From Candidatus Iainarchaeum sp. (GTDB taxonomy: Archaea; Iainarchaeota; Iainarchaeia; Iainarchaeales; JAFCCJ01), in assembly GCA_043816965.1 (NCBI GenBank), contig JBDRHK010000050.1, positions 1 to 24,622 on the forward strand: a DNA stretch of 24,622 nt. Direction: 5' to 3'. Below are positions 9,001 through 12,000 of this stretch, one piece after another; positions within the stretch are counted from its first letter, which is position 1, and the number at the start of each line of letters is the position of its first letter. The position numbers were made by a program.

Positions 9001-12000
9001 AGGTCTTTAATTTCAGTAATCTTCTTGGTCCCCATATTATCTCCTCCTGTGAAGGTCGGTGTTTGGGGAACGCCTTTTGGGTATGGGCTCCCCCCTGACT
9101 GCCTTCACTCATACTAATTAGATTCAGCCCTTTATAAATAGTTTTGGGGGTGGGTTTCCGGTGCGAAACCCCTATCCGGGTTTACGGGACGGCGTCCTCG
9201 CGGAGGACACCATGCTCGCTACGCTCGCAAATAAAATACGGCTTCGCTAATTACCCAACCCTGCTAACAACAATCTCATCATCGCCGAACATGTTCTTCT
9301 TTACCCGTCCAACAATCGTAATTTCCTTCTCCTTTAATTTCGGCAATAGTTCCTCAACAATATCCTCGGGATTTTTCCTTTCAAGCAGATCCCTGAATTC
9401 ATTATTATCCAAACCCAATAATTTCTCCCCGTCCCCGCCAAAACCAACAACGCCAATGCTTGCGGTGTCATCCTCAATCTCAACCTTAACCAATGCCTTC
9501 TTTTTTGGGTTTTTAACCTCGCCACACTTTTCACAAATATAATTCTCTCCTATCTGCGAAACAGATTTCCCGCATTTTTCACAAACAAGGTAATGCAACT
9601 TCCCTGGCCTGATTTCACCAATCTTCCCTGTGATTTTAACCATCTCATTCCCCACAATCTGGTTAATCTTTTTTTCCTCTGCATTTTCCGCGCTCAATTC
9701 TGCAAGCGCAGGCATTTCCCTCTTCGGGTTTTTCAGAATCCTTGCCTTCCAGCCCAGATTCAGCTCAACCCCCTGTAGCCCTTCCTTTGTGTAGGCCCCC
9801 TCAACCTTTACCAAATCACCGACACTCAATTCCTTCAATACATCAACCATCTCATTCCAGGCAGCGGCCCTGCACCTTCCCTTTTCATCGGCAAGCAGGA
9901 AATTCCCGACCTTTCCCGAGCCCTTTTCAGAACTGAACTCGCGGGCCTCAAAGATTGCGGCAATCCTCGCAAAAACATCAACATCTCCAAAACCAGCAAC
10001 TAATTCATTCAGATTAAGGGTCTTTGATTCAGCTTCAGGAAGTTCCAGTTTCTGCTTCTCATCCAGAAGCAACTGCCCGCCCTTTCCCAAATTCATCTGC
10101 AATTTATCATTGAAAGATTTTGTGTAACAGCCTTTCAGCATAATTATGGAGCCGCGCTCAATCTTAAGGTCATTTAATTTATCCACATCATCATTCCAGA
10201 TAGTTAATCTCATTTCCCCTGAATCGTCGTCAATAATCAGGCTGCACAATTTTCCGCTTTTTCCGCCCTTCTCAAAACCCTTTGGCTGGAAAATCTGCTT
10301 TGCCCTCACACTCAGCGAGATGCCATTCATCCCCTCTTTCAGGTCAGAAATTTTTATCCTTTTGCTGCCGCCCCCAGAAAGCTCAACCCCCATCTCTTTT
10401 GCAACCATAAATGCCGCCCCCTGCTCACTCAGCAAGCCGGAGAATTTCTCCATCTTGTCAGATATTTTTTTCTCTACTGATTCCTTACTTTTGCCGGCAG
10501 AAACAATCTTTTTGACAATGTCCTCTTTTGATTCCAGTGAAGGGTTCATTTCAATCAACAGCCTGAAATATTCAGAAACTGAAATATTCTAAAGGGGGTA
10601 TGTTATGTAGAAGTTATTTCCCTAACAAGCTTTTTAAGCCATTTCGCACTCTTTTTTCTGTGATTCCCGGTGTTTGAGGAGGTTTTTCCCAATTTATTTG
10701 CTTTTTACGCGACCGATTACAGTGCGAATTCTTATCTTTTAGTGGGCAAAAAGACGGTTTTAATAGACACAGGCCTTAAATCAAGGGGGCCAGCATTAAA
10801 GGATTCTTTAGCTGCAGTGGGTTTTGAGCCTGAGGACATTGATGCTCTACTCCTAACGCACGGGCATTCTGACCATTTTGGCGCCTCCTATATCTTCCCA
10901 AATGCCGAGAAATATATGCACAAATTCGATGCCACATATGTGAACATTAAGGACGTGATATTTACGGCAGCCGCAAGGCTCAATAACCTCTATTTCCCCA
11001 GAATCACCAAAAATTATGAAATTGATTCCATTATTGATGTTGCCCCCTTTAAATTGAAGGTTTTAAGCACCCCGGGGCATACACTAGGCAGTGTCTGCCT
11101 GTATGATGAAAAAAACAAACTCCTTTTCAGTGGAGACACCATTTTCAATGGCTCTGTGGGTAGGCATGACCTTCCAAGTGGAAGCAAAATGGACCTAATA
11201 GATTCCCTGAAAAAGCTTAAAGAACTGGATTTTGACTATCTTTTCCCAGGCCATGGATTAATGCTCAAAGAGGGACAGGAAGAGAACATTAAAATGGGCA
11301 TTGAGATGCTTTCCCAGTGATAAGGATTTTTATAAATCTATCCTACCAAATAATATTGAAGGCAATCCATATGACAAAGCATTTTGGGCAGTTCTACAAG
11401 AGAATGGTGGATGACATTTCCGAACAGGGAGGATTAACCTTTTTGGTTATTGACCCCCCAAACCAGTCGCCGGAGATAGCCGGCAGGACAGCAAAACTTG
11501 CCGAAGAGGTTGGTGTAAGCGCAATTGCGGTTGGCGGAAGTGTTGGCGCCCAGGGGGAACTTCTTGACGGAACAATTCTCCAGATAAAAGAAAATTCCTC
11601 CCTCCCTGTTGTGCTTTTTCCGGGGAACATTGCAACAATTTCCAAGCACGCAGACGCGATTTATTTCATGTCAATGCTGAATTCGCTTGACCCTTATTAC
11701 ATTTCCGGCGCGCAGACAGTTTCCTCAATGCCGATAAAGAGATTAGGCCTTGAGCCAATTCCCACCTCATACATAATAGTTGAGCCAGGAAGGGCTGTTG
11801 GCTGGGTTGGAAGGGCTAAAATAATTCCCCGCGAACTTCCTTACCTTGCGGCAGCAACAGCTTTAGCTGGGGAATTCATGGGGGCGCATTGCTGCATCCT
11901 TGAGGCAGGCGGAGGGGCGCCTTCCCCGGCACCTCCTGAAATGGTGAAAATGGTAAAGGATGCAATTGACATTCCCTTAATTGTTGCAGGCGGGGTAAGG

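Follow-up and report, generated by a model that had tools for sequence, protein, structure and literature searches.

Across the promoter of the recombinase gene radA in Candidatus Iainarchaeum sp. (genome G000), a short sequence box stands immediately 5′ of the TATA element. This raises the question of whether the box is the operator of a wider gene set, which genes that set contains, and why homing endonuclease genes should be among them. The window is the whole stretch of DNA analyzed, 24,622 nt, which is contig C50. Its radA locus is laid out as follows.

9153..9164, minus strand: core box of the radA promoter, 12 nt, GCACCGGAAACC (read directly; exact 12-mer match; nhmmer E = 3.7e-10)
9140..9164, minus strand: full 25-nt box, whose 3′ part is a C-rich stretch and then AAAA, reaching the BRE position (32-site alignment)
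9130..9139, minus strand: TATA element ATTTATAAAG (read directly)
9110..9112, minus strand: ATG at the predicted transcription start, 26 nt past the start of the TATA element
9036..9111, minus strand: radA 5′ leader with a conserved hairpin (single-sequence folds)
8085..9035, minus strand: radA, 316 aa (Pfam Rad51 E = 1.7e-93, HHH_5 E = 2.8e-11)
9165..9228, minus strand: upstream repeat module abutting the radA box (sequence comparison between loci)
9251..10558, minus strand: Replication protein A gene, directly upstream of the radA promoter (Pfam Rep_fac-A_C, CDC24_OB3, OB folds)

The repeat module consists of GCGAGC-N3-GCGAGC, a short hairpin, and then CGTCCCGTAAAC-N2-GGATAGGGGTTTC; joined to the box, it makes up an imperfect palindrome, GGGTTTC-N6-GAAACCC. 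Copies of this module precede the box at nurA, the gene for a PC4-like protein, HicB, MazE and DUF2204, with a degenerate copy at mcm; it is also found elsewhere without the box. The Replication protein A gene itself had no match to the box profile described below, and a poor box-like 12-mer at 10673 has two mismatches and the wrong spacing.

The earlier note had placed the box about 55-60 nt before start codons, which does not fit radA, where the distance is 129 nt and includes a 77-nt leader with a Shine-Dalgarno sequence (GGAGGAG, approximately 9042-9048). The distance from the TATA element to the radA ATG is 93-109 nt in 17 genomes. The ATG at 9112 opens a 61-aa ORF that is out of frame with radA in G000, and the equivalent ATG in the sister species G001 is in frame with it (339 aa). 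The leader is predicted to fold into an outer stem, an A-rich internal loop, two inner stems and a YCCAAA apical loop, an architecture common to about 14 of 17 minimum-energy folds with differing stem sequences. RNAalifold predicted no pairs on a MAFFT alignment of 16 radA leaders, and because this alignment was structurally inconsistent, single-sequence folds were compared instead. A search of Rfam at E ≤ 1 assigned the leader to no family, its sole match being a chance one to sR44.

The same box recurs throughout the genome. A nhmmer profile made from 32 hand-picked sites found 33 copies of the box with its BRE/TATA at E ≤ 0.002 in the 1.34-Mb genome under study, and the next match had E = 1.1. 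The reversed genome gave nothing below E = 0.5 (best match, E = 0.52), so the recurrent box upstream of TATA that had been noticed earlier is real. The exact 12-mer GCACCGGAAAYC occurs 18 times in G000 and 0 times when read backwards. A looser pattern (the 12-mer with up to two mismatches plus any AT-rich octamer) was dropped, as it returned 121 matches versus 34-51 in shuffled or reversed controls; because of this low specificity the count of 33 is based on the profile. All 33 sites have a GAAA-like and a TATA-like element after the box and an ORF downstream on the same strand, and the spacing from the core to these elements is gap-free in 27 of 32 aligned rows. The sites are at separate promoters spread over 21 contigs. 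Counted from the first base of the box, the start codon comes after 41-74 nt at 26 of the 33, a leaderless arrangement, and longer leaders occur at seven. The BRE and TATA elements at these promoters are near consensus, and the box itself is no clear palindrome. The box family is thus shown to be discrete and to stand at a fixed distance 5′ of the BRE/TATA.

Eight of the 33 genes behind the box belong to DNA metabolism, nine are toxin-antitoxin-like units, 13 are LAGLIDADG ORFs, and three are unknowns. The named members in DNA metabolism are RadA, NurA, MCM, an SSB-like OB protein and archaeal RecJ (C31:3252), which has the weakest site; radA, nurA and mcm, for which the box had already been claimed, are all three among the profile sites. 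A radical-SAM/HhH protein is nearest to TIGR03916, below the cut-off of that model, and the small protein called PC4-like from its sequence, with no family match, heads an operon with Hel308. A 507-aa protein had no Pfam or NCBIfam match, and its Atlas leads to PolB/exonuclease structures are sub-threshold (scores 0.79, TM at most 0.34). The selfish elements that have a box of their own also comprise one TnpB gene and one Bro-N gene. None of the 33 sites precedes a ribosomal, translation or other housekeeping gene, and the ribosomal and SRP genes within the window have no box. It is likewise absent in G000 before PCNA (two genes), PolB, HerA and Orc1-B; a site 27 nt past the Orc1-B stop codon serves the next gene. 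The Nre and DEAD helicase genes of G000 also have no box, unlike their orthologues in relatives.

The gene for the SSB-like protein is the second member located in the window, with the following features.

19352..19363, minus strand: second core box of the window, GCACCGGAAACG, in the promoter of the SSB-like gene (nhmmer E = 1.1e-4)
19380..19391, minus strand: extra upstream core copy GCACCGGAAATA, 28 nt 5′ of the main box, making this a tandem promoter class (sequence read)
19326..19336, minus strand: TATA element of the SSB promoter (sequence read)
19193..19291, minus strand: basic 32-aa ORF downstream of the promoter and upstream of ssb, with a Shine-Dalgarno sequence (ORF reading)
18868..19155, minus strand: SSB-like OB-fold gene, 95 aa (Pfam tRNA_anti-codon OB E = 4.8e-10, Ssb-like_OB E = 2.4e-6)

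This site (19363..19352, minus strand) was absent by place from the list in the earlier note. The tandem layout is also present at C28:20084/20112, C28:22404/22432 and C22:25476/25505. The 32-aa ORF had no Pfam match, and the NCBIfam SSB models match the 95-aa protein below their cut-offs. An orthologue in G040, with 67% identity, is also downstream of a box.

Conservation in relatives was evident at both radA and mcm. A degenerate box with a TATA element lies upstream of radA in 23 of 30 genomes and of mcm in 18 of 29, compared with 0-1 in reversed, opposite-strand, coding and distal controls, although these cross-genome counts are not independent because the relatives are kin. A recognizable box is missing at 7 of 30 radA and 11 of 29 mcm promoters. 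More than 20 families have retained the boxes at these two genes with an unchanged spacing to TATA, and the flanking repeats are not conserved there. Membership otherwise differs from genome to genome. In G001, the genes with box and TATA are those for RadA, NurA, XPD and the radical-SAM protein; in G014, those for Nre and Hel308; in G040, those for Nre, SSB and a DEAD helicase; in G020, those for NurA, MCM and a PD-(D/E)XK nuclease; in G026, those for Nre, DinB and XPD; and in G119 and G051, those for RadA, NurA, the PolB-like and the PC4-like proteins. Genes for Cas4-like nucleases are also found behind the box in relatives. The pattern CACCGGMAA-N8-20-TTTAWA gave up to 15 matches per genome in families f1, f4, f14, f17, f21, f24, f26 and f32 (controls, 0-1), and little or nothing in families f3, f28 and f30 and in other orders of the class.

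The sequence of the box varies between genomes in a concerted manner. The variants GGAAA, GGCAA, GGGGAAA and GTGGAAA shift together in each genome, LAGLIDADG genes included. Identity of the radA and mcm boxes is 10.6 of 12 bases within a genome and 8.4 between genomes, and the observed within-genome agreement was reached in 0 of 10,000 permutations (14 genomes, with box calls made by eye). In family f24, GGCAA is present at 18 of 18 sites examined in two genomes, including three LAGLIDADG genes. Such joint change within a genome fits a single DNA-binding factor that co-evolves with its sites.

Free-standing LAGLIDADG ORFs have the box in 13 of 16 cases, one fewer than previously counted; those without it are C71:2915, C78:238 and C36:3685. 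PF14528 has matches to twelve of these 13 ORFs (7e-14 to 3e-4), and the remaining one matches an intein model only. The sister species G001, with 3 PF14528 matches versus 33 in G000, has an empty site at C22:30200 and at C103:15369, and the borders of both can be placed to a few bases. In both of these clean comparisons the box is inside the inserted cassette, which begins 16 nt 5′ of the box at C22:30200 and 5 nt 5′ of it at C103:15369 and ends past the endonuclease ORF; neither empty site contains a box. The insertion points are between the TATA element of a tRNA-Arg gene and the tRNA 5′ end, and within codon 8 of a thiolase-like gene. Some of the endonuclease cassettes adjoin tRNA genes. 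Two other loci were not retained as empty sites: at C31:28877, the 2.3 kb missing from G001 include an additional ORF of 415 aa, and another LAGLIDADG gene is close by in that species, and at C26 both species have the endonuclease (79% DNA identity). Identity among the LAGLIDADG proteins of G000 is 24-34% and their boxes agree at at least 10 of 12 bases, and a near-invariant 12-mer in front of proteins that have diverged this far indicates selection on the box. The earlier statement that the endonuclease genes carry a box of their own is supported by its position inside the cassette at both empty sites, by its presence before proteins with no more than 34% identity, and by the use of the f24 variant in the endonuclease genes of f24.

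From its sequence context, the box is probably a transcription factor operator of a recombination, repair and replication-restart regulon conserved across this order of archaea with small genomes. The recombination/DNA-break regulon that had been proposed stands in part: its conserved operator is upheld by the lack of housekeeping genes, the counts at radA and mcm and the concerted variants, and the regulon may respond to breaks or follow replication or the cell cycle, MCM and RecJ suiting either role equally well. In such a regulon, one sequence-specific protein would read the box and switch the gene set together in an SOS-like manner. We favor a repressor released on a DNA-damage or replication-stress signal, because the BRE and TATA come close to the consensus and the box extends to the BRE with its 3′ half; an activator would also be possible. 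The endonuclease cassettes would gain conditional expression timed with the recombination proteins of the host.

The same operator might instead serve a replication or cell-cycle program, with MCM, RecJ, SSB and RadA expressed in each replication round, in the manner of eukaryote G1/S regulons and Sulfolobales cell-cycle regulators. Membership of mcm, archaeal RecJ, the SSB-like gene and the PC4-like/Hel308 genes would fit this S-phase-like role, as would the retention of the mcm box in 18 of 29 genomes and a related dyad in the orc1-A promoter. For Saccharolobus, RHH regulators of the cell cycle that have promoter motifs are described (PMC13199686, available part). We nevertheless consider this alternative unlikely, since PCNA, PolB, HerA and Orc1-B lack the box in G000, and the box genes of relatives comprise those for the translesion polymerase DinB, for XPD, for Nre and for PD-(D/E)XK nucleases, which are typical of repair and not of the replisome. 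Toxin-antitoxin pairs and endonucleases are better suited to a stress switch, and the orc1-A dyad does not track the box variant.

Explanations that do without a common regulator fared worse. Spread of the box as a portable promoter module by selfish DNA, with likeness due to common promoter descent, could draw on the location of the box within endonuclease cassettes, on a 320-nt repeat with a 43-aa ORF upstream of eight box sites (four copies approximately 92% identical), on the second repeat module that abuts the box at 6-7 cellular genes of the genus, and on the 25 of 33 sites that precede mobile, toxin-antitoxin or unknown genes. It is quite improbable, as it does not account for orthologous radA and mcm boxes that keep a constant distance to TATA across more than 20 families while flanking repeats are not conserved, for concerted change across unlinked loci, or for a near-invariant 12-mer in front of such divergent endonucleases. 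Even less probable is a general strong-promoter (UP-like) element without specific regulation. The near-consensus BRE and TATA behind the box and the leaderless nature of most targets are what such an element might be expected to show, but there are only 33 sites in 1.34 Mb, housekeeping genes are missing from them, including the ribosomal and SRP genes of the window, and the gene set is functionally coherent and conserved in relatives. LAGLIDADG target sites span a range of lengths that includes 25 nt, and with 13 of 16 free-standing ORFs adjoining a box, it might be regarded as the recognition site beside which these genes inserted. We give this almost no credence, since neither empty site in G001 has a box and the radA and mcm boxes are kept in genomes with few LAGLIDADG genes, such as G001.

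If the box is an operator, as we think probable, the best lead to its reader is one of the Orc1/Cdc6 paralogues, a possible but tentative assignment made from sequence. Two Orc1/Cdc6 matches are present in 38 of 41 genomes. The promoter of orc1-A has a unique dyad with half-sites of the degenerate pattern of the box, YA-[CG]-[CT]-GGAA; the dyad has both GGAA and TTCC, and the box has GGAA(A) without the 5′ TTCC. In genomes whose box has turned to GGCAA the dyad keeps GGAA, suggesting that dyad and box are probably read with different specificities. By score, both paralogues are nearest to Orc1-1 type structures (2qby_A and 2v1u_A; 201 and 245 bits) and reach only 53 and 85 bits with the Orc1-2 type chain 1w5s. 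Other candidates were sought as well. E2F/DP (PF02319) had no match at E ≤ 1 in G000, and the LexA-type Peptidase_S24 (PF00717) had none in this 86%-complete genome and short matches in only 5 of 41 genomes of the order. A second TFB was not found in G000, which at this completeness has a single TFIIB-repeat gene (C79). An RHH_8 protein (112 aa) of the PC4-like/Hel308 operon is 72% identical in G051, with the same operon order, and was rejected because it is found in only 4 of 41 genomes. The small ORFs preceded by a box were also rejected, being antitoxin-like or patchily distributed.

A more ambitious picture, which we hold to be rather doubtful as a whole, would be an SOS-like network throughout this order of DPANN-type archaea, read by one of two Orc1/Cdc6 paralogues that were duplicated independently of Sulfolobus Orc1-2. 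Selfish DNA (homing endonuclease cassettes, toxin-antitoxin units, TnpB and virus-like genes) would have plugged into it, tracking the box variants and firing only when the break-repair machinery is up, and the radA leader hairpin would be a second, RNA-level control.

Bacteria have damage or replication regulons defined by a cis element (LexA); in archaea, such regulons are known essentially from Sulfolobales (Orc1-2). Our literature search found none for DPANN-type archaea, nor for radA promoters in general. A sequence-defined regulon would offer a handle on the control of DNA repair in uncultivated organisms and a bait for its regulator, and the box singles out unknown genes as candidates for DNA repair, among them those for the PC4-like protein and for the PolB-like protein of 440-507 aa. 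The sharing of the host operator by divergent endonuclease cassettes and toxin-antitoxin modules is a clear archaeal parallel to mobile elements that ride on SOS, and suggests that the endonucleases are expressed at times when recombination proteins are available.

In the bacterial SOS system, a LexA operator is common to genes for the recA-type recombinase, repair polymerases and nucleases, and to toxin-antitoxin modules and mobile elements, which take advantage of the signal of the host. The present system is similar in that one operator is common to the recombinase and repair genes (radA and nurA in G000; DinB, XPD and Nre in relatives), and differs in its archaeal BRE/TATA promoter, the lack of a clear palindrome, and the lack of a Peptidase_S24 match in G000. 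The seg genes of phage T4 are free-standing homing endonuclease genes with their own promoters, and the cassettes described here are likewise self-contained, promoter-bearing units between or inside host genes. Unlike seg, the divergent endonucleases here share one operator with the proposed repair regulon of the host and have the box variant of the host lineage; a literature search combining homing endonuclease, SOS box and LexA listed no such case.

Two archaeal systems provide further points of comparison, each described here from the part of the source that is available. Orc1-2 of Sulfolobus is a proven damage regulator that acts through a promoter motif, ANTTTC within AATAGTTTCRGWDTACTCWS, with ups, ced and tfb3 named as targets (PMC6061795). 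Both systems have a short motif 5′ of the start codon, and the archaeal damage network of Sulfolobales has an Orc1/Cdc6-family reader. RTTTC occurs in the complement of the box and GTTTCG in the upstream arm at cellular promoters, a loose resemblance to ANTTTC. The box GCACCGGAAAYC is different from the AATAGTTTCRGWDTACTCWS context, its complement GRTTTCCGGTGC has no A two bases before TTTC at the core and so does not contain the hexanucleotide, and neither Orc1 paralogue of G000 is nearest to 1w5s. In Pyrococcus, the mini-ORB TTCCAGTGGAACT has conserved TTCC and GAA, and single mini-ORBs outside oriC were unbound in vivo (PMC1904270, available part). The boxes differ from ORB elements in being single promoter sites across the genome, not clustered at an origin next to orc1/cdc6. 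The core CA-NN-GGAA is common to both, and comparison with the CCAGTGGAAC stretch of the Pyrococcus mini-ORB gives 8 of 10 matching positions for the G014 radA box GCAGTGGAAA and only 6 of 10 for the box of G000.

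The promoter box forms a real and discrete family of sites in the Candidatus Iainarchaeum sp. genome (G000; 1,343,559 bases in 109 contigs, 42% G+C, 86% complete). The exact 12-nt core GCACCGGAAAYC occurs 18 times, versus zero copies of the same 12-mer read backwards. A looser pattern was unspecific (121 matches versus 34-51 in controls), and sites were therefore counted with an nhmmer profile built from an alignment of 32 clear sites. This profile gave 33 matches at E <= 0.002, with the next match at E = 1.1 and the best match in the reversed genome at only E = 0.52, which bears out the recurrent promoter box described in an earlier note. 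All 33 sites have a same-strand ORF downstream. With ORF starts taken from a simple in-house caller, 26 sites have a distance of 41-74 nt between the first box base and the start codon, as expected for leaderless mRNAs, and seven sites have longer leaders. The spacing of about 55-60 nt given in that note does not hold for radA, which starts 129 nt from the first base of its box. Two sites are in the window:

9164..9153, minus strand: core GCACCGGAAACC of the radA box, read in the sequence
down to 9140, minus strand: rest of the radA box, a C-rich stretch then AAAA, read in the sequence
9139..9130, minus strand: TATA element ATTTATAAAG, read in the sequence
9112, minus strand: an ATG 26 nt past the TATA start, read in the sequence
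9035 to 8085, minus strand: radA (Pfam Rad51, E = 1.7e-93), with a Shine-Dalgarno sequence GGAGGAG 5' of its start
19363..19352, minus strand: second site, belonging to a gene for an SSB-like OB protein

In the sister species G001 (L043), the ATG located where radA transcription is predicted to begin shares the radA frame (339 aa), but in G000 it is out of frame (window 8927-9112, minus); the adjacent run has six G in G000 and five in G001, and the frame difference may be an assembly slip or genuine. Among 17 genomes representing different families, at least 14 keep a radA mRNA leader of 65-80 nt (window 9036-9111, minus; compared loci L091-L116). Its outer stem leads to an asymmetric, A-rich internal loop (AAA / AAAAA), a pair of inner stems whose sequences differ between genomes yet remain complementary, and a YCCAAA apical loop; the Shine-Dalgarno sequence comes next. 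An Rfam search returned no family match for this leader, which may be a post-transcriptional control element of radA. Genes for 8-oxoguanine glycosylase and endonuclease III (window 5169-6433, plus; 4623-5054, minus) are 2.7 kb from radA, adjoin an Lrp/AsnC regulator gene and have no box, nor do the ribosomal, SRP and eIF6 genes in the window.

Genes behind the 33 sites were identified by Pfam and NCBIfam scans, tblastn and Atlas, and comprise eight DNA-metabolism units, nine toxin-antitoxin-like units, 13 LAGLIDADG ORFs and three unknowns. The first two groups are as follows:

DNA metabolism: RadA; NurA; MCM, which contains an intein
DNA metabolism: archaeal RecJ (NCBIfam RecJ_archaeal, 530 bits, exceeding the model cut-off)
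DNA metabolism: the SSB-like OB protein
DNA metabolism: a radical-SAM/helix-hairpin-helix protein (nearest TIGR03916, under that model's cut-off)
DNA metabolism: an 80-aa protein without a family match, which from its sequence reads like a PC4/YdbC-type single-strand binder and heads an operon ending in a Hel308-type helicase
DNA metabolism: a 507-aa protein with sub-threshold PolB-like leads only
Toxin-antitoxin-like: PIN (2), MazE-PIN, HicB-HicA, DUF7718-HVO_A0114, DUF2204 nucleotidyltransferase
Toxin-antitoxin-like, on sub-cut-off matches: an AbrB-like ORF; two units of a winged-helix ORF with a ParE/RelE-like ORF

Most free-standing LAGLIDADG ORFs have the box, as had been claimed, but the count is 13 of 16 rather than 14. 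In G000 no box was found before the two PCNA genes, PolB, HerA, the complete Orc1 paralogue (Orc1-B, C15:43439-44566), or ribosomal or other housekeeping genes, and the Nre gene and one DEAD helicase gene also have none. Between the box promoter and the SSB-like gene lies an arginine-rich ORF of 32 aa, whose Shine-Dalgarno sequence is strong (window 19193-19291, minus); in the relative G040, about 200 nt likewise separate box and ssb. The PC4-like gene is separated from Hel308 by a gene for an RHH_8 protein of 112 aa and an ORF of 60 aa (C21:3975-4310, minus), in an order also seen in G051, from a distant family (L240), at 72-73% identity. Because a search covering RHH_8 matched this protein in only four of 41 genomes, the pair looks like a mobile insert in the repair operon.

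Six of 40 relatives belonging to the same order are enriched in the exact 12-mer (11, 14, 11, 7, 6 and 3 copies, with no control matches in those six), counts that are not independent since the relatives, one genome per species, are mutually related. All 71 matches in 13 genomes were fetched and 59 downstream ORFs scanned. Genes behind both box and TATA include:

G001: RadA, NurA, XPD-like helicase, radical-SAM protein, PC4-like/Hel308 operon, PolB-like protein, PIN, HicB, one LAGLIDADG ORF
G014: Nre, Hel308, HEPN, PIN, LAGLIDADG
G040: Nre, SSB-like, DEAD helicase, DUF7718, LAGLIDADG
G020: NurA, MCM, PD-(D/E)XK nuclease
G026: Nre, DinB, XPD, TnpB, LAGLIDADG

Matches without TATA fall within unrelated genes (those for S11 and NAD synthase among them) and are apparently fortuitous. 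When 151 genomes of the class were scanned, families f1, f4, f14, f17, f21, f24, f26 and f32 gave up to 15 matches per genome, with controls at 0-1, and f3, f28, f30 and other orders gave few or none. A degenerate box with TATA is found upstream of radA in 23 of 30 genomes and of mcm in 18 of 29 (0-1 in reversed-sequence, opposite-strand, coding and distal controls). Upstream of mcm (L193-L222), at least ten families also share another conserved motif, CTCCCAATAC, located 25-30 nt before the box.

The core differs among lineages, being CACCGGAAA, CACCGGCAA, CAGGGGAAA, and CAGTGGAAA or AAGTGGAAA, and the radA and mcm boxes of one genome are of the same variant. With box calls made by eye, they have a mean of 10.6 of 12 bases in common within a genome versus 8.4 between genomes, and none of 10,000 permutations reached the observed agreement, either with 14 genomes or with 12 (one per family). 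In f24, from which 20 sites were fetched in two genomes, GGCAA is present in 18 of 18 scannable sites, preceding RadA (2), NurA (2), PolB-like, PC4-like (2), HicB, a Bro-N protein and three LAGLIDADG ORFs; one of these PC4-like genes is followed by RHH, a 60-aa ORF and Hel308, as in G000. Such joint change at unlinked promoters is expected from a co-evolving DNA-binding protein, and we regard it as the strongest argument that the box would define a genuine regulon. Together with retention of the box before radA and mcm, it supports the proposal in the earlier note that the box is a regulon's operator.

The endonuclease genes carry the box with them. No two of the 13 LAGLIDADG proteins in G000 exceed 34% identity, yet their boxes match the 12-mer at 10 or more positions. 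G001 has three PF14528 matches versus 33 in G000 (about 11 of the 33 in long intein-type frames), so empty sites exist. At C22:30200, the 940 bp absent from G001 run from 16 nt upstream of the box to the first base of tRNA-Arg; the cassette lies between that gene's own TATA and the tRNA. At C103:15369, a 1.2-kb stretch absent from G001 starts 5 nt upstream of the box; here the cassette interrupts codon 8 of a thiolase-like gene, and a short duplication allows the host gene to restart. The box is within the inserted DNA at both loci and neither empty site contains one, which argues against the box as the homing target of the LAGLIDADG enzymes. A third comparison with G001 was complex, and one further locus is occupied in both species.

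By ARAGORN and Rfam, seven of the 13 box-preceded LAGLIDADG ORFs, possibly eight, end in or beside a tRNA gene on either strand (C22:1071, C22:30200, C25:6708, C26:23414, C66:621, C81:9289, C86:8011; C31:28877 is ambiguous), which suggests tRNA genes as insertion targets. The tRNA-Arg(TCG) beside the C22 cassette (L176:2725-2818) has an 18-nt intron that is missing from the cassette-free G001 allele (C41:11706-11779) and may destroy the endonuclease target. ARAGORN found only 21 tRNA genes in G000, so many may be split or have unusual introns.

Two repeat families flank the box. One, intergenic, consists of GCGAGC-N3-GCGAGC, a hairpin of variable sequence and CGTCCCGTAAAC-N2-GGATAGGGGTT (window 9165-9228, minus; C22:19704, C21:4697/4809, C57:1883/1924, C38:30694, C96:4150, C63:4620-4830, C89:6976-7120, C19:15849). 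It adjoins the box at cellular and toxin-antitoxin promoters, is missing at endonuclease promoters, and is also found alone or in tandem; in three other families, the radA or mcm box is preceded by similar stretches of GAGCG-AGCGA plus a hairpin. The other, of about 320 nt, lies upstream of eight box sites in G000 (C5:8322-8642, C25:6411-6747, C86:7713-8033, C15:57710-58038; diverged at C66:232-489, C26:22972-23258, C7:9771-10064, C15:1024-1186) and contains a long-range palindrome of about 170 nt (MFE z = -6.7) as well as a conserved 43-aa ORF and a Shine-Dalgarno sequence. Four of the copies share about 92% identity, yet the LAGLIDADG proteins encoded behind them share only about 25%; the repeat probably represents the left arm of a mobile cassette of composite structure.

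Searches for the factor reading the box found no LexA-type peptidase, no E2F/DP domain and a single TFB gene. The RHH protein of the PC4-like/Hel308 operon, present in 4/41 genomes, was dropped as a candidate. Two Orc1/Cdc6 matches occur in 38 of 41 genomes; in G000, Orc1-A is present as fragments on C3 and C94 (in G001, on C23). The Orc1-A promoter of G000 has a dyad, TTACCGGAAGAGGTTCAGTTCCACAAC, at C3:854 (C3:828-854, minus), just 5' of TATA and the sole good copy in the genome, whose half-sites conform to the degenerate pattern of the box. A further resemblance is that of the box to the Pyrococcus mini-ORB as quoted in PMC1904270, and Sulfolobus Orc1-2 is an Orc1 paralogue able to run a damage regulon via a promoter motif (PMC6061795). 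Against this lead, both paralogues are nearest Orc1-1 type structures, the dyad stays GGAA where the box has turned GGCAA, and Orc1-B has no box of its own in G000. We rate an Orc1-type regulator as possible but less likely than not. By eye, the dyad is kept in about 15 of 30 genomes (L121-L150) as TAGTGGAAG or TACCGGAAG separated by 8-9 nt from TTCCACAAC, about 10 nt ahead of TATA, and Hel308 is often convergent with the dyad-bearing orc1 gene.

At leaderless genes the core occupies positions about 60 to 49 nt ahead of the start, and the 25-nt box extends with its 3' half as far as the BRE. We favour a repressor that would sit on the box and be released upon a damage or replication-stress signal, because the box extends to the BRE, box promoters have a near-consensus BRE and TATA, and many targets (endonucleases, toxins) are toxic if permanently expressed, although an activator in such a position would be equally normal for archaea. 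A subclass of promoters (SSB-like, PolB-like, DUF7718 and a 128-aa ORF) carries an additional core copy 28 nt upstream, and its spacer is longer by 4 nt; in G040 the SSB-like and PolB-like promoters retain this longer spacer and the conserved stretch that precedes the core. The arrangement hints at cooperative binding. Membership of DinB, XPD, Nre, nucleases, RadA and NurA would point to a damage signal, and that of MCM and RecJ would fit a replication signal. The evidence throughout is comparative sequence analysis, with several boxes called by eye.

A literature search at abstract level found no cis element described for DNA-repair genes of DPANN-type archaea or for archaeal radA promoters, and one at title level turned up no account of a host damage operator controlling free-standing homing endonuclease genes. 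As predicted here, the box system would work in the manner of the SOS regulon of bacteria and the Orc1-2 network of Sulfolobales, but it is a member of neither: LexA is missing, the motif differs, and by best-hit comparison the Orc1 paralogues are not of the Orc1-2 type.
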